A stretch of 58,631 nucleotides of DNA from Ilumatobacteraceae bacterium. GTDB taxonomy: Bacteria; Actinomycetota; Acidimicrobiia; Acidimicrobiales; Ilumatobacteraceae. Shown one piece after another: positions 39,348 through 58,531 of this stretch. The notes below the pieces were generated by a model. That model had not been told where the DNA came from. It was given only the letters and a program-made list of their open reading frames with translations, and did no database searches. A program made the translations under genes and the position numbers. How positions within the stretch are numbered: the first letter of the stretch is position 1; every line of letters starts with the position of its first letter. The stretch lies in NCBI GenBank assembly GCA_040401695.1, contig JBBANY010000002.1, forward strand, positions 1-58,631, read 5' to 3'.

Positions 39348-39995
39348 TCAGCAGGTGACGCCGGGGATGCAGAGCTTCGGAAGGGTCACGGGCGAGGTGA
39401 GCTTCGTCAGGTCGGTGCCGGAGAGGTTCGAAGCGAGGCTCGGCGTGCCGGTGATCTTCGGGATGTTGCTCCAGTTCGCGGTGTTCGTCGCGGTCGTCGA
39501 CGCGGCAGGCTGTTGTGCGGCGGTTGCTGCTTGATCGGCGGCGGGCTGATCGACCGCGGGCTGTTCGGCGGGAACCGAGACAACCGAGGTCTCGCTCGTC
39601 GCGGGTGCCGGGGCGACCGCAACATCCTGCGTCGGGCTCGGCTCTGCGACCGTCGGTGCGGCCGGGGCAGTGTCCTGACTGGTCGAAGCCGGCTTCTTCT
39701 TCGTCGCCTTGGCCACCTTCTTCGTGGTTTGCGTCGTGGACTCAACTTTCGTTGCGACGACCGGTGCAGGCTGTGCTTCGGTGGCGACGATTTCGTCAGT
39801 CGCGGGGATCGCCTCGGCCGCGAGGTTCTGGAGAACATCTGCGACATTCGCAACCTGGGCCGGGGTGACGACTTTGTCGCCGGCCTTTCCGTCGCAGGCC
39901 ACGAGGCCCGCGGAGAGGAAGAGGGCGGCGGCGGTGGTGCCGGCGGCGATTGCGATGCGCTTCAGGTTCTTGTTGTTGATCCGGTTCGTGTTCAT
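39348..39995 (-). CDS. low-complexity secreted lipoprotein, function unknown
   Basis: ATG at 39995 is preceded by AAGGAGAAAA. It has a signal peptide with a lipobox (ALFLSAGLVACDG), an Ala/Pro/Thr/Gln-rich body, and a C-terminus ...LPKLCIPGVTC with two Cys. Confidence 0.65.
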   Translation of the reverse strand: MNTNRINNKNLKRIAIAAGTTAAALFLSAGLVACDGKAGDKVVTPAQVANVADVLQNLAAEAIPATDEIVATEAQPAPVVATKVESTTQTTKKVAKATKKKPASTSQDTAPAAPTVAEPSPTQDVAVAPAPATSETSVVSVPAEQPAVDQPAADQAATAAQQPAASTTATNTANWSNIPKITGTPSLASNLSGTDLTKLTSPVTLPKLCIPGVTC

Positions 39996-40141
39996 TGTTT
40001 TCTCCTTGTGTGGTGGGCCCCTTGTGGGCTTCGTTGCCGTACAGAGCCGCGACCCCCGCTGGCGCGGACACTTTTCTCCTGACTTTTTTGGAAATCCCTG
40101 AAACCCATGCAGCGCAACGGTTTCCGGGTGCATGCCGGTCC

Positions 40142-40193
40142 GGTTCTCGGTGCGAGATGTCGCGAAAAGCGGGTCAACACACACCGAGAACCC
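40142..40193. repeat. palindromic intergenic repeat, copy C
   Basis: GGTTCTCGGTGCGAGATGTCGCGAAAAGCGGGTCAACACACACCGAGAACCC has 11-12-bp perfect terminal inverted repeats. It lies in the 300-nt divergent region between the lipoprotein gene and metY. Confidence 0.6.
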
Positions 40194-40295
40194 GGGGGTT
40201 TTCGGCGCGGATCTTGACGAAAACTGCACCTGGAGGCGCCGAGAATCCAAAACCTGAGTTGATGAGTCGGGAATTGGGGCGTAGCGTCACCCGCC

Positions 40296-41606
40296 ATGAG
40301 CAACGCTTCCTGGGGTTTTGAAACCCGCCAAATCCACGCCGGCCAAAGCCCCGACCCCGCGACCGGTTCGCGCGCGGTGCCGATCTACCAGACCACCTCG
40401 TACCAGTTCCGTGACTCGGCGCACGCGCAGAACCTTTTCGCGCTCGCAGAGATCGGCAACATCTATACGCGCATCATGAACCCGACGCAGGCCGTGCTCG
40501 AAGCGCGCGTCGCAGATCTCGAAGGCGCAGTCACCACCGCAGTTGGTTTGCCCGGTGCCCTCGTCGTCAGCTCGGGTCAGGCCGCCGAGACGCTTGCGAT
40601 TCTCACGCTCGCAGAAGCGGGCAGCCACATCGTCGCGTCGCCGTCGCTGTACGGCGGCACGTACAACCTGTTGCACTACACGCTGCCAAAGATGGGAATC
40701 GAAGTGTCGTTCGTCGACGACCCGCACGACCTGCAGCAGTGGAAGAGCGCGGTGAAGCCGAACACGAAGGCCTTCTACGGTGAAGTTCTCGCCAACCCGA
40801 AGAACGACGTGTTCGACATCGAAGGTGTGTCGAAGGTTGCCCACGACGTCGGAGTGCCGCTCATCATCGACAACACGGTCCCGACCCCGTACGGCATTCG
40901 TCCGCTCGAGTGGGGTGCCGACATCGTCGTGCATTCACTCACCAAGTTCATGGGTGGCCACGGTTCGAGCATCGCCGGTGCGATCGTCGACGGCGGCAAG
41001 TTCGACTTCTCGGCGAGCGGTCGCTTCCCGAACTTCACCGAGCCCGACCCGTCGTACCACGGCCTCGCGTACTGGCCGGCTCTCGGACCGGGCAGCTACA
41101 TCATCAAGGCCCGCGTGCAGATGCTGCGCGACCTCGGCGCTGCCGTCAGCCCGTTCAACGCATGGACGATCCTGCAGGGAATCGAAACGTTGTCGCTGCG
41201 CATGGAGCGTCACTGGTCGAATGCGGCACAGGTCGCCGAGTACCTGACTAAGAACCCGAAGGTCGAAAGCGTGTCGTGGGCGGGACTCCCGTCGAGCCCG
41301 TGGAACGAGCGCGCGAAGAAGTACTTCCAGGGTCGCGGCTTTGGTTCGATCATCGCGTTCAACGTGAAGGGCGGCCGCGATGCGGGCCAGAAGTTCGCCG
41401 AGGCGCTGAAGTTGCACAGCCACGTCGCGAACATCGGTGACGTGCGCAGCCTCGTCATCCACCCTGCATCGACGACTCACAGCCAGTTGACCGAAGCAGA
41501 GCAACTTGCATCGGGTGTGCACCCGGGCATGGTTCGCCTCTCCGTGGGTCTCGAGACGATCGGCGACATCCTCGCCGACCTCGACCTCGGCTTCGCTGCG
41601 ATCTAA
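40296..41606 (+). CDS. metY: O-acetylhomoserine aminocarboxypropyltransferase (sulfhydrylase), PLP-dependent
   Basis: WGFETRQIHAGQSPDPATGSRAVPIYQTTSYQF, HSLTKFMGGHGSSIAG (PLP Lys) and the C-terminal RLSVGLETIGDILADL are typical of MetY/Cys-Met PLP enzymes. Confidence 0.9.
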   Translation: MSNASWGFETRQIHAGQSPDPATGSRAVPIYQTTSYQFRDSAHAQNLFALAEIGNIYTRIMNPTQAVLEARVADLEGAVTTAVGLPGALVVSSGQAAETLAILTLAEAGSHIVASPSLYGGTYNLLHYTLPKMGIEVSFVDDPHDLQQWKSAVKPNTKAFYGEVLANPKNDVFDIEGVSKVAHDVGVPLIIDNTVPTPYGIRPLEWGADIVVHSLTKFMGGHGSSIAGAIVDGGKFDFSASGRFPNFTEPDPSYHGLAYWPALGPGSYIIKARVQMLRDLGAAVSPFNAWTILQGIETLSLRMERHWSNAAQVAEYLTKNPKVESVSWAGLPSSPWNERAKKYFQGRGFGSIIAFNVKGGRDAGQKFAEALKLHSHVANIGDVRSLVIHPASTTHSQLTEAEQLASGVHPGMVRLSVGLETIGDILADLDLGFAAI

Positions 41607-51834: not shown

Positions 51835-53985
51835 TCAGTGACTGAACTCGACCTTGGGAAGAATGCGGTCGAGCCACTTCGGCAGGTACCACGTCTTGTC
51901 GCCGAGAAGACCGAACAGTGATGGCACGAGCATCATTCGGATGAGCGTCGCGTCGAGCAGAACTGCGACGGCGAGCGTGATGCCGAGTTCGGTCGGCGGA
52001 ATCGGGCCGGTGACACCGAAGGCGATGAAGACCACGATCATGATGAGCGCGGCGTTCGTGATGGGGCGGCCGGTACGGGCAATTCCTTCGCGAATCGCCA
52101 ATTGCGAATCGCCCGTTGCGTCGTGGTGTTCCTTGATCGAAGCGAGCAGGAACAGCTGGTAGTCCATGGACAAGCCGAAAAGAAGTGCAAAGAAGAAGAG
52201 TGGTGCCCATGCGTTGATGAAGCCCTGTTCCTCGATACCGATCAGATTGGCGCCGATTCCGTACTGAAAGACGATGGTTGCGAAGCCGAAGCTCGCGGCG
52301 ACGGAGATGAGGTTCATCACGACTGATGCGAGGGCGATGGTGATGCTGCGGAACACGACGAGCAACAGAACGAATGCAACGATCATGATGAGCGCCACGG
52401 CGAGCGGGAACGATCCGATGAGTGCATCGGTCAGGTCGCCATTTTGTGAGCCGGGTCCGCCGACAAGTGCTTCGGGCGACACGTCGTTCACGGCGTTGCG
52501 GAGGCGTGTGACGGTGTCGTCGGTTGCGTTGTCGGACGGTCCAGTCTTCGGGAACGCACGAATGGCAAGACGCCCACTTTCAGCGGGTTCGGTCACGATC
52601 CCGACCTGAACGATGTTCGGGTCTCGTCCGACAACGTCGACGATCGCCTGGGCATCGGCGGCGGGAGCCGTGATGAACAGCGGTGCGACTCCTCCGTCAC
52701 CGAATGCGGCAACTGCGGCGTCGTAGCCGTCACGGCTCTGCGCGCCCTTGTCGACGACGCGCGCATCGGGCATGCCGAGGTCCATGCCTATGGCCGGAGC
52801 CGCAAGGCCAAGGAGCAAAAAGAGACCGAGCGCGAGAGTGCGTCGTGGTTTCCAGAGAGCCTTCGAAGTCCAGCGGGCCCATCGTCCTTCGGCCGCGCGA
52901 TCGGGGTCTTCTTTTGCGCGGCTGACGAGCACCCTGTCACCCATCGCAGCAAGCACGGCGGGCAGCAACGTGAAGCTGGCGAGCGACACCGCAACGACCG
53001 AAAGGATCATGCCGAGCGCCATCGAACGGAACACCATGATCGGCACGAGAAACAGAGCGGCGAGCGACAGAACAACCGCGAGAGCGGAGAGAAAAACAGC
53101 CTTGCCGGCAGTACCCAGCGCACTCGCCGTCGCTTCGGGCAGCGTCTTTCCTTCCTCGCGCTCCTCGCGATAGCGCGTCGTGATGAAAAGGCTGTAGTCG
53201 ATGCCGACCGCGAGACCGATCATCATCGAGAAGTTCATCGACCACACCGACAGGGGAGTGATGTTGCTCAGCAGGTTGATCGATGCCCAGCCGATGAAAA
53301 TGCCGGCAACGGCAAGTATCAAGGGAACGCCCGCGGCGATCGCGGATCCGAATGCAACGAACAACAGGATCAGCGTCGGCAACCCCGACAACAACTCTGC
53401 CTTGTGCAGGGCCTTCTCGTTCGACTCGTTGAAGTCGTGCCACACGGCCCACTCGCCGGTGACGTTCGCACGGGTTCCTTCCGGCAGCTCCTGTTCGGTG
53501 ACGAAGTGCATCAGTTTCCCAGCGGACTCCGGTCGGTCTGCGTCGACTCCGGCTGCCAGCGCCACCGGGATGAGGGCGGTCTTGCCATCGGGAGAAATGA
53601 GACCGGCTTCAGCGGGCATCATCGTCGGGTCAATCGCGCCGGCCGCACCCGGGGCGTCCATCAACGAGGCGGCAAGCGCTCGGACTGTTGCCGGCGAGTC
53701 CATGACGGCCACTTCCTGCACGACGACGACCATCGCGGCTTCAGCGCCCGCCTGTGGGAAGTCGCGACGCAATTCGTCGCGTACGTCGACGGCCGTCGAA
53801 CCCTGTGCTTCCCAGCCGGCGCCTGACAAGGCACTCGTCAGTGTGAGGGCCAGAGGTGCTGCCGCAAGGGTGACGATCGCCCAGAGGGCGATCATCGCCC
53901 AACGGTGGCGTACGGAGAATCGTGCGGTGGCGGGCAAGAGGCCGTGGGCATGTTCACGAGACTGTGCATTGGCATACGAGGTCAA
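51835..53985 (-). CDS. MMPL-family (RND-superfamily) membrane transporter
   Basis: 716 aa with two 6-TM bundles, each following an extracytoplasmic domain. Shows typical MMPL sequence (...MMIGLAVGIDYSLFITTRYREE..., ...LLFGLSMDYQLFLLASIKEH...). Confidence 0.9.
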   Translation of the reverse strand: MTSYANAQSREHAHGLLPATARFSVRHRWAMIALWAIVTLAAAPLALTLTSALSGAGWEAQGSTAVDVRDELRRDFPQAGAEAAMVVVVQEVAVMDSPATVRALAASLMDAPGAAGAIDPTMMPAEAGLISPDGKTALIPVALAAGVDADRPESAGKLMHFVTEQELPEGTRANVTGEWAVWHDFNESNEKALHKAELLSGLPTLILLFVAFGSAIAAGVPLILAVAGIFIGWASINLLSNITPLSVWSMNFSMMIGLAVGIDYSLFITTRYREEREEGKTLPEATASALGTAGKAVFLSALAVVLSLAALFLVPIMVFRSMALGMILSVVAVSLASFTLLPAVLAAMGDRVLVSRAKEDPDRAAEGRWARWTSKALWKPRRTLALGLFLLLGLAAPAIGMDLGMPDARVVDKGAQSRDGYDAAVAAFGDGGVAPLFITAPAADAQAIVDVVGRDPNIVQVGIVTEPAESGRLAIRAFPKTGPSDNATDDTVTRLRNAVNDVSPEALVGGPGSQNGDLTDALIGSFPLAVALIMIVAFVLLLVVFRSITIALASVVMNLISVAASFGFATIVFQYGIGANLIGIEEQGFINAWAPLFFFALLFGLSMDYQLFLLASIKEHHDATGDSQLAIREGIARTGRPITNAALIMIVVFIAFGVTGPIPPTELGITLAVAVLLDATLIRMMLVPSLFGLLGDKTWYLPKWLDRILPKVEFSH

Positions 53986-54040
53986 GGTGAAGTCACTTTC
54001 ATCAGGTGTGAGATGTCGGAAAACGAGCGCGACGAACGAG

Positions 54041-54310
54041 TCAGGCGAGCTTCAGGAACATCTTCTGGACGTCGTCGATCGAATAGCCCTCGCGGCGTGA
54101 GCGTTCGGGGTTGCCGACGCACCAGGTGAGCCCGGCTGCCACGAGGTTGAACCCGACCTGCTCGAGAGCCTTACCCGCCGCGGAGATCTGATTGACGACT
54201 TCGCGGCAGTCGCGTTCCTCTTCGAGCATTTGCTGGATTCCACGCACCTGGCCTTCGATGCGGCGAAGTCGCTTTTGCAGGTCGGCGATGGTGTCCTGTG
54301 GAATTTCCAT
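54041..54310 (-). CDS. CsoR/RcnR-family (DUF156) metal- or thiol-sensing transcriptional repressor
   Basis: ATG at 54310 gives 89 aa: LQKRLRRIEGQVRGIQQMLEEERDCREVVNQISAAGKAL... It has Cys35 and Cys64 but Gly at the position of the CsoR His ligand. Confidence 0.85.
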   Translation of the reverse strand: MEIPQDTIADLQKRLRRIEGQVRGIQQMLEEERDCREVVNQISAAGKALEQVGFNLVAAGLTWCVGNPERSRREGYSIDDVQKMFLKLA

Positions 54311-54321
54311 GTCGACACCAT

Positions 54322-54337
54322 ATACCCCTGGGGGTAT
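54322..54337. promoter_or_regulatory. CsoR-type operator ATACCCC-TG-GGGGTAT
   Basis: Perfect 7-bp GC-tract inverted repeat, 12 nt upstream of the repressor start codon. It has the same architecture as described CsoR operators (ATACCCC...GGGGTAT). Confidence 0.65.
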
Positions 54338-54350
54338 GCAAAACAAGACC

Positions 54351-55031
54351 TCAGGGGGTCTTTGCCGGCAGCGGCAGATGGTCGCGCAACAGGGCAAAGC
54401 GCAGCCCCGCCCGCGAGGCCTCGCGCATGACCACCTCGAGGCTCGCCGGCAACGAATCGAGGTAGTGCAGCAACACGATGTCGCCACGACGCAGCCCGGT
54501 TCCGCCGTCGGCGCGGATGATGCGTCCGCCATCGGCCATCACGTTCCACAACACGATCCGCGACAGACCACATGACTTCGCCGCACGCACGGTGTCGGAG
54601 TTCCAACCGCCACCAGGAGGGCGAAAGAACGCCGGGCGTCGGCGAATGACACGCTCGACCTCGCGGTTGCCCGCGCAGATTTCGGCTCGTTGATCCTTGT
54701 AGTTCATCGCGCTGACAATGCGGTGGGTCTGGCTGTGGTTCTCGAACGTCATTCCGGTCTGGCGCAGCAGGTTCACGAACCGGCGTCTGTGGCGGTTGAT
54801 TTGTTCGGGCAGCGCGAAGGTCGTGATCGGTATCCGGAGGTTGCGGATGTACTGGTTTGTCTCGCGCGACAGATGCGAGCCGTCGTCGACGGTGAGAAAC
54901 ACGACGGGTTCCTTCGTGGCCACATGGTCGATCACGTAGCCATCAGTCCGACCGGCGGCGTGCGCGGCGACGGGGGCAACCCCGAGAACGAACAGGCCGA
55001 CGGCCACACAACCCATTACTCGTCGACCCAT
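54351..55031 (-). CDS. secreted polysaccharide deacetylase (NodB homology domain) family protein
   Basis: Signal peptide MGCVAVGLFVLGVAPVAAHA. FLTVDDG (Asp-Asp metal/catalytic motif), HSQTH and RPPGG motifs. Confidence 0.8.
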   Translation of the reverse strand: MGRRVMGCVAVGLFVLGVAPVAAHAAGRTDGYVIDHVATKEPVVFLTVDDGSHLSRETNQYIRNLRIPITTFALPEQINRHRRRFVNLLRQTGMTFENHSQTHRIVSAMNYKDQRAEICAGNREVERVIRRRPAFFRPPGGGWNSDTVRAAKSCGLSRIVLWNVMADGGRIIRADGGTGLRRGDIVLLHYLDSLPASLEVVMREASRAGLRFALLRDHLPLPAKTP

Positions 55032-55086
55032 GTACTGTCACTATTGCAGACGCCACCGGTACGGGGTGGGGGCTGCTTCCGACGGG

Positions 55087-55128
55087 AAAGTGTCCGCCAA
55101 ACGCACCCGCGTGACTCTGTTCGGCATG
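55087..55128 (+). promoter_or_regulatory. promoter-like motif AAAGTGTCCGCC-N16-CTCTGT-N2-GGCATG upstream of the sigma-fusion gene
   Basis: It shares 24 nt at identical spacing with the site at 56807..56848, and ends 45 nt upstream of the sigma start codon. Confidence 0.5.
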
Positions 55129-55172
55129 CGTCGAAGACGGTCACGAGGCAGCAGGGGGGCCGACGGAGCGAG

Positions 55173-56783
55173 ATGGTGGAACAAAACGAACACAGTGCGA
55201 TCGTCGAAGGACTGCGCGCGGGTACCAACGAGGGTCTCGCCGCGTTCTACGACCTGTACGCCGACAAGCTCTACGACTTTGCCCGTCGCCAGTTGCGTGA
55301 CGCAGCGCTCGCTGCCGATGTCGTGCACGACACGGTGCTCATCGTGAAGAGCCGCATCGGCCAACTTCGCGACGAGTCGAAGTTCCGCGCCTGGGTGTAT
55401 GCCATCGTGCGCAATGAAGTACGCGCGAAGGCCCGTGCAAGGTCGCGGCACGTGCGCGAGGAGTACGCCCCCGAGCAATCGGTCGACCCCGACTTCGCCG
55501 GTGACCACGATCGCCGCGAACTCGCCTCGCTCATCAACGAAGCTGTCGCAGGCCTGACCGAACGCGAGCAAGAGGTGTTCCACCTCTTTGCCCGACAGGG
55601 GCTGTCGAACGACGAAATCGCGGCCAGCCTGGAACTGACCTTCGCCAACGCGCAAAAGCTGGTGCAGCGCGTGCGCGACCGCATCGCCCGCTCGGCCGGC
55701 GCCCTTCTTGTCGCCCGTCAAGGCCGCAAGGACTGCAGTGATCTGAACGTTCTTCTCGTCGACTGGGACGGCACGTTCTCGCCGCTGTGGCGCAAACGCA
55801 TCGCCCGCCACGTCGACGAATGCAGCGCATGTGAACGCAAGCGCGCCGTTCTACTGCAGCCCGGTGGCGCCGTCATGGCCGCGCCGTACTTCGCGGCACC
55901 CGAGTCGCTGCGCTCGCGCATCTTCGACTCCATCGCCGCCGGTGTCGACCTCGGCCTCAGTGCGATGCCCAAACCGCCGTTCCTGCGCCGGCCCGCGGTG
56001 CTGTCGTCGGTGGCGGGCATCGCCTTCGTTGCAATCGTCGGGGTGGTGGCGAACAACGGAACGCAGGCGCCGCGGTTCGTCGAGTCGTCGTCCACGTCGT
56101 CTTCGCCGGCGAGCACCGTCGACTCGACTGCTTCCGCTGACGCTGCAGCAACTGTCTCGTCGACGGTCCCGCCGTCGCCTGACTCCACTGTCTCGTCAAC
56201 GGTCCCGCCGGCGCCTGACACCACTGTCTCGTCGACTGCACCTGTCGCGCCGGCGACCACCGTCGACTCGACTGCGCCTGTCGCGCCGGCGGTGACCGTC
56301 GACTCGACTGCTTCCGCTGACGCTGCAGCAACTGTCTCGTCGACGGTCCCGCCGTCGCCTGAGGCCACCATCTCGTCGACGGTGCCGCCGGCGCCTGAGA
56401 CCACCATCGCGCCGGTGGTGGCGCCGGCGTCGCAGGCGTCCTCGACCGTTGCCCCGGTGGCGACAACCACGACGGCAAAGCCGGGGTCGAATTCGCCGTC
56501 CAAGTTCGGTGTTCCACAGTGTTCGGGTTTCGGCAACACGAAGCTGAAGGCCTTCACCCTGAAGATCCCGGTGACCGACCCCCAAGGCGTGGCCTCGGTG
56601 CGGATGCGGTTGACCACCGCGGCCGTGTGGCACGCCGCGGCGTTCCAGACCTCGGTGTGGTCGGCAAGCGTCGACAAGGTCGACATCGCGGCAACCAAGG
56701 CCACGGTCGCCGTCGAGGCCACCGACAAAGACGGTGCGGTGACCTCCACGCAGGTGGCCGTCTACGCCTCCACCTGCCCCTAG
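55173..56783 (+). CDS. ECF sigma factor fused to a zinc-finger (HxxxCxxC) anti-sigma motif, one TM helix and an extracytoplasmic Ser/Thr/Pro-rich repeat plus C-terminal domain
   Basis: ATG at 55173. Sigma region 2 (AFYDLYADKLYDFARRQLRDAALAADVVHDTVLIV) and region 4 HTH (LTEREQEVFHLFARQGLSNDEIAASL) are followed by KDCSDL...HVDECSACE and the TM AVLSSVAGIAFVAIVGVVA. The rest is an S/T/P/A repeat region and a two-Cys terminal domain of about 110 aa. The upstream part of track ORF 54690.. is unsupported. Confidence 0.8.
   Translation: MVEQNEHSAIVEGLRAGTNEGLAAFYDLYADKLYDFARRQLRDAALAADVVHDTVLIVKSRIGQLRDESKFRAWVYAIVRNEVRAKARARSRHVREEYAPEQSVDPDFAGDHDRRELASLINEAVAGLTEREQEVFHLFARQGLSNDEIAASLELTFANAQKLVQRVRDRIARSAGALLVARQGRKDCSDLNVLLVDWDGTFSPLWRKRIARHVDECSACERKRAVLLQPGGAVMAAPYFAAPESLRSRIFDSIAAGVDLGLSAMPKPPFLRRPAVLSSVAGIAFVAIVGVVANNGTQAPRFVESSSTSSSPASTVDSTASADAAATVSSTVPPSPDSTVSSTVPPAPDTTVSSTAPVAPATTVDSTAPVAPAVTVDSTASADAAATVSSTVPPSPEATISSTVPPAPETTIAPVVAPASQASSTVAPVATTTTAKPGSNSPSKFGVPQCSGFGNTKLKAFTLKIPVTDPQGVASVRMRLTTAAVWHAAAFQTSVWSASVDKVDIAATKATVAVEATDKDGAVTSTQVAVYASTCP
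56115..56405 (+). repeat. in-frame tandem duplication (180-bp period) within the extracytoplasmic linker of the sigma fusion
   Basis: 56115..56182 is identical to 56295..56362 (68 bp), and the next 45 bp or so are about 85% identical. The sub-repeat ACCGTCGACTCGACTGC occurs at 56115, 56259 and 56295. Confidence 0.85.
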
Positions 56784-56806
56784 ACCTGCCCCAATTCAGC
56801 CCGAAA

Positions 56807-56848
56807 AAAGTGTCCGCCCCGCGGGGGTTGGCGGCTCTGTAGGGCATG
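56807..56848 (+). promoter_or_regulatory. promoter-like motif AAAGTGTCCGCC-N16-CTCTGT-N2-GGCATG ending in the RCC1-gene start codon
   Basis: Same motif and spacing as 55087..55128. Here the terminal ATG is the start codon at 56846, which implies a leaderless transcript. Confidence 0.5.
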
Positions 56849-58531
56849 AAGCTCACATCGGCACTTGCCACCACAATCCTTGCCGCCTCAATTGCGGGAG
56901 GCCTGTCCATCGCCCAACCCGTTGCCGCGGCAACCTCAAGTCCCGTCGTGGCCCTGGCGGCAGGCGACGAACACACATGTGCCCTGTACGCCGACGGGGC
57001 GGTGCAGTGCTGGGGCGGCAACGACTTCGGTCAGTTGGGCAACCCCGACGTGGAGTCGTCGGCCGTGCCCGTGCGGGTGCAGTTGCCCGCAGACGCCGAG
57101 GCCATTGCGGTCGACACCGGTGCGTTCCACACGTGTGCGGTGACGCGCGACCACCGCGTCTACTGCTGGGGCTACAACGGATGGGGATCGATTGGCAACG
57201 GTACGTACACGAGCACGATCATTCCAGTCCTCGTCACCCTCGCGCCCTCGGCGGCCGTCGTCAGCGACGTGGCTGCAGGCGGGTTCACCACCTGTGTGTT
57301 GTTGTCGAACGGCACCGCACAGTGCTGGGGTCGCAATCAGTACGGCGAGGTGGGTGACGCCACGCGCACGATGCGCAACACCCCGACACCCGTCACCGGC
57401 GTCACCGATGCGCTCGACATCGATGCGGGAACGAACCACGTGTGCGTTCTGCGCAGCGTGGGCCGCGCGCAGTGTTGGGGTCGCGCCGCCGATGGCCGCA
57501 CCGGGGATCCGACCTTCGCCGACGTCGCAGAGATCAGCGCGGGCGGTGCCCACACCTGCATGCGCACCACCGTCGGCGGTCTGCGGTGCTGGGGTCTCAA
57601 CAACTACGGCCAACTCACGCCGAACAACATCGATGCAGGAATCGTTCGTGTCTCGGCCGGCGGTGCGCACACCTGTGTCGCAACGGATGGTGGCATCGTG
57701 CGCTGTTGGGGTGATGCGAGCTTTGGCCAACTGGGACTCGCGAACGTCGTCGTCGAAGGACGTTCGGTTCTCGAAGCGGTCGCCGGTACCCGCCACACCT
57801 GTGCCCGCCTCGACGACTCGTCGGTGTGGTGTTGGGGCGACAGCGTCGCTGGCCAGGCGGGCGACCATTCACTCACGCTCTCGGCAAGCCCCGTGAACCT
57901 GATCGTCGGTGTGCCACCCGCACCGCCGAGCCCCGAGCCGTCACCGGTCGATCCCGAGCCGATGCCGTCGCAGCCGGAGACTCCTGCGCCGGTCGAGCCC
58001 GCACCGTCGACACCCGACACCGTCATTGAGACGCCCGTTGAAGCACCCGTCCGGGTCGACCCGGTCGCGCCGCAGCCCGTCGAGAAGCAGGTCGCCGGCA
58101 CGCCATCGGAATCGGTGACGCTCGAAGCACCCGCAGTGACGCCGCCCGTCACAGCGAGCCCGCTCGCCATCGCCAAGCGCGGGGTATTGGAACTGCGCCT
58201 CGGTCGTGAGGCGAACCTGGTGCGCATCGCCCGCGCTGCAGGCGTGCGCCTGCCGGGGTCGTTGATCGCAGGTTCCCTCAGTCGTGCACGCAGCGTGAGC
58301 GCTCACCCGTTCACCCGGTTGCGCGTCGAGATGAAGGTCAGCCACCCGCGCAACTGCCGCAACGTGTTGACACCCGTGCTGGGCGCTGCCGTGCGTGCGA
58401 CGCGCGTGGGGGAGTGCCGTGTGACGCTGCGCATCTCGCGTGCCGGACGCCCCGACATCCTCCGCACGGTGCTCGTGCAAACCGTTGCAGCGGTGGTGCC
58501 CGTCAACAACCCGGCTCGCAACACGCGCTGA
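56846..58531 (+). CDS. secreted RCC1-repeat (beta-propeller) protein with Pro-rich linker and basic C-terminal domain
   Basis: Signal peptide (ILAASIAGGLSIAQPVAAA). About 7 repeats carry the H/T-xC-A/V...V-xCWG-xN-xxGQLG pattern. A PxP-rich linker (PPAPPSPEPSPVDPEPMPSQPETPAPVEPAPSTP) follows, then an Arg-rich domain of about 150 aa. Confidence 0.8.
   Translation: MKLTSALATTILAASIAGGLSIAQPVAAATSSPVVALAAGDEHTCALYADGAVQCWGGNDFGQLGNPDVESSAVPVRVQLPADAEAIAVDTGAFHTCAVTRDHRVYCWGYNGWGSIGNGTYTSTIIPVLVTLAPSAAVVSDVAAGGFTTCVLLSNGTAQCWGRNQYGEVGDATRTMRNTPTPVTGVTDALDIDAGTNHVCVLRSVGRAQCWGRAADGRTGDPTFADVAEISAGGAHTCMRTTVGGLRCWGLNNYGQLTPNNIDAGIVRVSAGGAHTCVATDGGIVRCWGDASFGQLGLANVVVEGRSVLEAVAGTRHTCARLDDSSVWCWGDSVAGQAGDHSLTLSASPVNLIVGVPPAPPSPEPSPVDPEPMPSQPETPAPVEPAPSTPDTVIETPVEAPVRVDPVAPQPVEKQVAGTPSESVTLEAPAVTPPVTASPLAIAKRGVLELRLGREANLVRIARAAGVRLPGSLIAGSLSRARSVSAHPFTRLRVEMKVSHPRNCRNVLTPVLGAAVRATRVGECRVTLRISRAGRPDILRTVLVQTVAAVVPVNNPARNTR

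Follow-up and report, generated by a model that had tools for sequence, protein, structure and literature searches.

Sequence features of the locus

We analyzed a stretch of 58,631 nucleotides from an Ilumatobacteraceae bacterium (GenBank assembly GCA_040401695.1, contig JBBANY010000002.1), referred to below as the window. Near its end lies a gene encoding an extracytoplasmic function (ECF) sigma factor fused to a presumed anti-sigma module, followed by a gene encoding a secreted protein with RCC1 repeats. The same bipartite motif precedes both genes, and a third copy precedes a distant lipoprotein gene. Table 1 lists these features.

The fusion gene starts with an ATG at 55173, preceded by a GGAG Shine-Dalgarno sequence at 55164-55167. 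The sigma core of its product occupies residues 7-173 and comprises only regions 2 and 4, as judged from Pfam and NCBIfam matches (PF04542, PF08281, PF07638 and TIGR02937). A zinc anti-sigma-like motif follows, C-X24-H-X3-C-X2-C; an alignment of 18 homologues shows no variation at its residues C188, H213, C217 and C220. A transmembrane helix spans residues 275-293 (hydropathy peak 2.49), and the C-terminal part consists of a Ser/Thr/Pro/Ala-rich linker and a terminal domain of about 100 residues. No carbohydrate-binding family was matched by Pfam in this protein, and some of its homologues carry PF19190 or PF22076 in place of a carbohydrate-binding domain. The homologues come from metagenome-assembled genomes (MAGs) of uncultured freshwater Actinomycetota, Acidimicrobiales and Ilumatobacteraceae. 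The linker is encoded at 56068-56414 by five copies of a tandem repeat phased at 36 nt (131-nt register, 63-89% identity), and the length of this extracellular segment differs among orthologues.

The RCC1 gene product has a signal peptide, seven RCC1 repeats, a Pro-rich linker and a C-terminal segment with two cysteines. The product of the lipoprotein gene matches no Pfam or NCBIfam family.

Table 1. Position of the motif sites and of the genes around them (window numbering)
Feature	Position	Strand	Sequence, evidence or comment
Site 1 pattern	55087-55128	+	AAAGTGTCCGCC-N16-CTCTGT-tc-GGCATG
Site 2 pattern	56807-56848	+	AAAGTGTCCGCC-N16-CTCTGT-ag-GGCATG
Site 3 pattern	40074-40033	-	AAAGTGTCCGCG-N16-CTCTGT-ac-GGCAAC
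Predicted promoter before sigma gene	55083-55128	+	A-tract and -35-like GTGTCC (55090-55095); 19-nt variable spacer; -10-like CTC(TGT) (55115-55120); predicted +1, A 55126
Predicted promoter before RCC1 gene	56803-56848	+	A-tract and GTGTCC (56810-56815); CTC(TGT) (56835-56840); predicted +1, A 56846, the first base of the RCC1 ATG
Predicted third promoter copy, before lipoprotein gene	40033-40078	-	GTGTCC (40071-40066); CTC(TGT) (40046-40041); predicted +1, A 40035
ECF sigma factor fused to presumed anti-sigma module	55173-56783	+	Pfam, NCBIfam, alignment invariants, hydropathy, repeats
Secreted RCC1-repeat (beta-propeller) protein	56846-58531	+	Pfam RCC1_2 and RLD
Lipoprotein, putative third regulon member	39348-39995	-	MNTNRINNKN..., lipobox LVAC, Ala/Pro/Thr-rich, 215 aa
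Candidate leaderless upstream open reading frame	55126-55347	+	ATG at predicted +1; 73 codons and stop; frame +2 relative to sigma gene
Polysaccharide deacetylase	54351-55031	-	PF01522
MMPL transporter, CsoR-like metal repressor and polysaccharide deacetylase genes	51835-55031	-	CsoR-like repressor, PF02583; divergent, upstream of sigma gene

Three copies of a bipartite motif

Inspection of the window confirms, base for base, the two matching sites described in the initial annotation: sites 1 and 2 share 24 identical bases at equal spacing. A pattern search of the window allowing at most three mismatches returned a further copy, site 3, that is absent from that annotation. With 100 dinucleotide-preserving shuffles as a control, the full pattern has three matches in the window and none in any shuffle. 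The GTGTCCGCC core alone, with one mismatch allowed, is not enriched in the window; the signal thus resides in the blocks combined at fixed spacing. A weight matrix built from orthologous sites recovers only the three sites when run over the window, with scores of 18-41 bits for sites as compared to 6-16 bits for the best matches in shuffled windows. That the individual blocks are short, and the core on its own unenriched, might suggest a chance similarity in a GC-rich genome. However, the empty shuffles and the conservation of the motif in dozens of independent assemblies make this explanation negligible.

All three sites are intergenic and each is oriented toward a gene. Site 1 lies within the 141-nt gap that separates the divergent polysaccharide deacetylase gene from the sigma ATG. 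An interval of 62 nt separates the sigma stop (56783) from the RCC1 ATG, and site 2 occupies the greater part of it. Site 3 is found 39 nt 5' of the lipoprotein ATG (39995, reverse strand).

The initial annotation had named membership of a longer dispersed repeat as a finding that would speak against a promoter. Alignment of the flanks reveals no similarity between sites outside the motif. According to a repeat finder, sites 2 and 3 resemble each other over 44 nt (40035-40078 and 56803-56846), a segment that runs from the A-tract up to the A of GGCA. The motif is therefore not part of a longer repeat. We also considered a dispersed or RNA-level element with no link to transcription initiation, such as a terminator, a hairpin or a REP-like (repetitive extragenic palindrome) sequence. 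Sites 2 and 3 are 82% alike over their 44 nt and their spacers contain inverted repeats (CCGCC...GGCGG and CCGCG...CGCGG), as such an element might have. However, the similarity stops at the block borders. Site 1 and two comparison loci (L007 and L008) lack the spacer hairpin, whose fold is no better than that of shuffled sequences (z = 0.15). Furthermore, there is no T-run or terminator at the sites, no Rfam family is matched in the window, and orthologues keep only the two blocks. We regard this explanation as very improbable. Neither a sigma-70-type promoter nor an intrinsic terminator was found in 54900-57000.

Conservation in orthologues and distant homologues

Comparison loci were obtained from an exact-protein look-up (9 loci) and from a metagenome scan (79 loci). 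Orthologues fall into two clades: clade 1, whose sigma proteins are 67-96% identical to that of the window, and clade 2, at about 48% (L008 and L021-L029). The pair formed by the sigma and RCC1 genes is retained where the rest of the neighborhood differs, for example in L008 (48% sigma identity). An A-tract followed by GTGTCC-N19-CTC precedes the sigma gene in each of the 12 distinct sequences of clade 1 and each of the 6 distinct sequences of clade 2, and the same arrangement recurs before the RCC1 gene in all loci that extend to it. The spacing between the two blocks is invariant at the sites of both clades, while spacer and flank sequences diverge. The orthologue consensus reads AAA(A/T)GTGTCC(G/A)C-N17-(G/A)CTCTGT.

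A variant of the motif is also found further away. In distant homologues of 37-45% identity, mostly from soil, AAAGTGT(CC/GG)-N18-20-GCTC(C/T)TAC adjoins the sigma gene (L038, L047, L061, L065, L068, L074, L075/78, L080 and L085). One of these loci, L075, has one site before a small secreted-protein gene located just 5' of the sigma gene and another 3' of the sigma gene. When a relaxed pattern was run over 58 distant loci, 17 matches were obtained on the sigma strand and 4 on the opposite strand, for 0.9 expected. The excess of variant sites beside distant sigma homologues suggests that the motif travels with this sigma family.

Two observations on the surroundings of the sigma gene may be added. 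In the sigma leaders of clade 2, GTGTCC has a second, conserved occurrence (AAAAGCGTGTCCCGTAGC) that ends 12 nt short of the sigma ATG and is not accompanied by a -10 block to match; it occupies 9985-10000 in L008 and the equivalent position in L021-L029 and L122, and the leader as a whole is better conserved than the promoter spacer. On the other side, the MMPL transporter, CsoR-like repressor and deacetylase block is syntenic in clade-1 loci and not in clade 2, and the motif precedes none of its genes.

A probable promoter signature for a fused ECF sigma factor

Based on its structure, placement and conservation, we consider it likely that the three sites are promoters read by the ECF-type sigma domain of the fusion protein. 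AAA(A/T)GTGTCC would act as the -35 element and (G/A)CTC(TGT) as the -10 element, on either side of a free 19-nt spacer, and transcription would start at the A located nine bases past CTC. The first copy would then drive the sigma gene itself, in a positive autoregulation; the second would drive the downstream gene for the secreted RCC1-repeat protein; and the third, 15 kb away, would drive the lipoprotein gene. In related genomes, the same promoter would stand ahead of other genes for exported proteins. The protein itself joins the sigma factor to a zinc anti-sigma-like module, followed by a transmembrane helix and a sensor-like tail outside the cell.

Several observations weigh against this interpretation. 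The blocks AAAGTGTCC and (G/A)CTCTGT are unlike the AAC/CGT signature common among ECF promoters, and the spacing in GTGTCC-N19-CTC is near the upper end of the ECF range. Many of the distant homologues scanned have no recognizable motif. Finally, one RNA-derived contig (56733-57349, from metatranscriptome unitigs that give no 5'-end resolution there) crosses the RCC1 promoter, and may correspond to read-through from the sigma gene or to DNA carry-over. ECF groups differ from one another in promoter motif (PMC7826278); the atypical blocks thus reduce the likeness to the common type and leave membership in the class possible.

The departure from the usual AAC/CGT blocks could also mean that the sites form a genuine promoter or operator read by another factor, be it a different alternative sigma factor or a DNA-binding regulator, with the sigma gene as one of its targets. 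A second ECF gene was sought and not found within the window, which gives a view of 58.6 kb of the genome, and such a gene is excluded within these bounds only. However, the motif or its variants adjoin this sigma family across diverse neighborhoods and taxa, a classic signature of ECF autoregulation. Furthermore, two blocks at fixed spacing with a fixed offset to leaderless starts fit a promoter and not a palindromic operator. Reading by another factor therefore appears unlikely, if less so than the alternatives considered above.

Autoregulated promoters of ECF factors (group IV of the sigma-70 family) are familiar from Escherichia coli sigma-E, Bacillus subtilis sigma-W and Mycobacterium tuberculosis SigE, SigH and SigL. 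A circuit in which an autoregulated ECF factor controls envelope or secreted targets is textbook in type, while the organism group itself is not yet studied, and we know of no regulatory data for the abundant uncultured freshwater actinobacteria resembling Acidimicrobiia. The sites described here share with these promoters two short blocks at fixed spacing, a free spacer and a copy before the sigma gene (general features in PMC7826278), as well as additional copies before a few envelope or secreted genes and a -10 element about 9-10 nt before the start, a start that is predicted in our case. They differ in that GTGTCC and CTC(TGT), 19 nt apart, take the place of the frequently seen (G)AAC and CGT(C), and in that the sigma factor carries its anti-sigma module as a fusion, with no separate anti-sigma gene.

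Fused zinc-finger and transmembrane extensions are known in the actinobacterial groups ECF48, ECF52 and ECF53, for which release by regulated proteolysis and positive autoregulation have been proposed, and the only studied member of such fused ECFs is SCO4117 of Streptomyces coelicolor (PMC5826349, PMC8999054). By domain order alone, the window protein resembles these groups: sigma2-sigma4, HxxxCxxC, a transmembrane helix, a long extracellular Pro/Ser/Thr-rich extension and a C-terminal domain. ECF52 is defined by an extracellular extension, long and rich in Pro, that carries a carbohydrate-binding domain (PMC5826349), whereas Pfam detects no such domain in the window protein. The host also differs, being from an uncultured freshwater lineage similar to Acidimicrobiia/Ilumatobacteraceae. 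The motif proposed for SCO4117, CSGYN-17-SRHA (PMC5826349), bears no resemblance to ours, and a text search for GTGTCC returned only primers. The promoter signature of SCO4117, the sole studied relative in kind, is still disputed; the sites described here would give this family of fused sigma/anti-sigma proteins a promoter consensus open to testing, along with its first regulon.

Exported proteins as putative members of the regulon

The initial annotation had proposed that the sigma and RCC1 genes share a promoter and form a small regulon. This proposal is supported by the orthologous loci examined, all of which retain the bipartite motif in front of both genes, and a search for the motif across many genomes points to further exported-protein genes in other genomes. 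For this search, AAAGTGTCCRC-N17-CTCTGT was scanned against one genome per species in 185,579 species, yielding a total of 55 stretches. About 35 of them belong to unrelated phyla and are mostly within genes, several corresponding to a single conserved coding segment of Clostridia. The remaining 20 or so were found in freshwater MAGs of the Actinomycetota/Ilumatobacteraceae type. For 16 of them the downstream gene is clear: it is a sigma gene in one case (L122) and a gene for an exported protein in the other 15, at a distance of 5-76 nt from the site. That the classifiable targets all encode exported proteins is as expected of an extracytoplasmic function regulon.

Orthologues of the RCC1 gene account for seven of the targets, five of them predicted to be leaderless (L093, L099, L102, L119 and L129) and two with a leader (L122 and L125). 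Site 3 has orthologues in six other species genomes, upstream of lipoprotein genes with a conserved 45-nt leader (L108, L109, L114, L132, L133 and L138). Two further targets encode a 717-aa lipoprotein with FG-GAP and fn3 domains (L112) and a 154-aa secreted protein resembling CarboxypepD_reg (L127). To date, the putative regulon would include the secreted RCC1-repeat protein, the conserved lipoprotein, the lipoprotein with FG-GAP and fn3 domains, and a small secreted protein. In these MAGs, both transcription units and leaderless genes could be annotated with the help of the motif.

Public RNA data, in the form of Logan unitigs from metatranscriptomes, include sequences related to each of the three genes, with no 5'-end resolution at the sigma and RCC1 sites. 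Contigs from eight metatranscriptomes cover the lipoprotein gene up to position 40026 and none falls in 40040-40335, which agrees with the predicted start at 40035; unitigs are of low resolution in this respect. The 39-nt leader of this gene includes a small hairpin and an AAGGAGA Shine-Dalgarno sequence. More generally, targets with a leader have a short GC-rich hairpin a few bases past the predicted start, as seen at 40003-40030 of the window (reverse strand), at 11670-11695 in L008 and at 4886-4910 in L075. Examples are GCCC-ACAAG-GGGC and CGGCGGGG-TGG-CCCCTGCCG. Judging from its position, this hairpin could be a 5' stabilizing stem-loop.

A perfect copy of the promoter in another Ilumatobacteraceae MAG (L091, 2158-2300, forward strand) is followed by no convincing open reading frame (ORF). 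About 90 nt are found after this promoter, containing a hairpin as well as a GC stem with a T-run. L091 may encode a sigma-dependent small RNA within the regulon.

A probable leaderless mRNA for the RCC1 gene

The initial annotation had also suggested that a transcript from site 2 would be leaderless, and several features argue in the same direction. No usable Shine-Dalgarno sequence precedes the RCC1 ATG. An in-frame TAG at 56840 lies two codons upstream, and the signal peptide offers no alternative start codon. In clade 1, each of the nine distinct orthologous sites places this ATG at +9 after CTC, and the unrelated signal-peptide gene of L127 likewise has its start codon at +9 and no Shine-Dalgarno sequence. 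ECF promoters start transcription about 9-10 nt past the conserved C of the -10 element; with start codons at +9, the RCC1 and L127 genes therefore fit leaderless mRNAs. We conclude that the RCC1 mRNA is probably leaderless, beginning at the predicted start site. The clade-2 RCC1 gene differs, with a leader of about 60 nt that includes a 5' hairpin and a Shine-Dalgarno sequence.

Leaderless translation is known from mycobacteria, where an ATG or a GTG at the 5' end is required and also suffices, and many short ORFs are found at transcript 5' ends upstream of annotated genes (Shell et al. 2015, PMC4633059). Ours is a non-mycobacterial host. Otherwise, the predicted transcripts are of the kind seen in actinobacterial leaderless mRNAs, with a start codon at the first transcribed base and no Shine-Dalgarno sequence, the start sites being predicted here.

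With no terminator between the sigma and RCC1 genes and a contig spanning their junction, a read-through RNA probably exists. In such an RNA, the RCC1 AUG would be internal and devoid of a Shine-Dalgarno sequence, and good translation of RCC1 would be expected solely from transcripts of its own promoter. This may explain why a dedicated promoter is located just 27 nt past the sigma stop.

A candidate upstream reading frame at the predicted sigma promoter

At site 1, the predicted transcript of the sigma gene would also begin with an AUG. This ATG (55126) is out of frame with the sigma gene and opens an ORF running across the sigma start, just as first annotated. It lies 47 nt before the sigma ATG, and the ORF spans both the sigma Shine-Dalgarno sequence and this ATG. 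The upstream ATG is kept at +9 in 12 of 12 distinct clade-1 sequences, in which the preceding bases and the following codon vary. Clade-2 sequences have a GTG at +11 (6/6), opening an ORF of 68 codons versus 73 in clade 1. Targets with a leader begin with AAC or ATC at the same position (seven lipoprotein sites and L112), which indicates that a start codon is not required by the promoter itself. From the arrangement of these sequences, a leaderless upstream ORF at the sigma promoter is plausible.

As to what such an ORF might do, we may hypothesize that leaderless, out-of-frame translation over the Shine-Dalgarno sequence and start codon of the sigma gene acts as a brake or gate on the positive feedback. 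The transcript would begin with AUG, and the 73-codon ORF would be translated across the sigma ribosome-binding site, damping sigma synthesis. Overlap of a leaderless ORF with the beginning of an autoregulated sigma gene is an arrangement of which we found no description, and it sets the present case apart from the mycobacterial ones.

L122, where the GTG is directly followed by a TAG stop codon, speaks against a specific role of the ORF. Moreover, the constant length and frame of the ORF follow from a 44-nt leader free of indels and a conserved sigma coding sequence. A conserved peptide was considered and rejected, as its initial 16 codons differ between sequences at codon positions 1 and 2. 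The conserved upstream start codon neither proves nor excludes function. A regulatory role of any kind remains tentative, its odds being somewhat below even. We view as rather doubtful the more precise proposal of a translational brake within a regulon that may include the L091 small RNA. The presence of a conserved start codon at the predicted start of the sigma transcript nonetheless provides a simple handle on translational control of an ECF feedback loop.

Additional observations

The C-terminus of the RCC1 protein (encoded at 58160-58531) and that of the FG-GAP/fn3 lipoprotein of L112 have in common a weakly similar segment of about 58 residues (pairwise E = 0.01), with two cysteines and an end of the form ..RT(V/L)(L/F)(V/I)QTV. 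One possibility is that regulon members share this segment as an anchoring or recognition module.

Several MAG records retrieved in the scan (L102/L108, L112/L119, L114 and L099/L133) are titled 'uncultured Bifidobacterium sp.' or 'Acidobacteria bacterium'. These titles look wrong, as the sequences are close to those of Ilumatobacteraceae/Actinomycetota MAGs.

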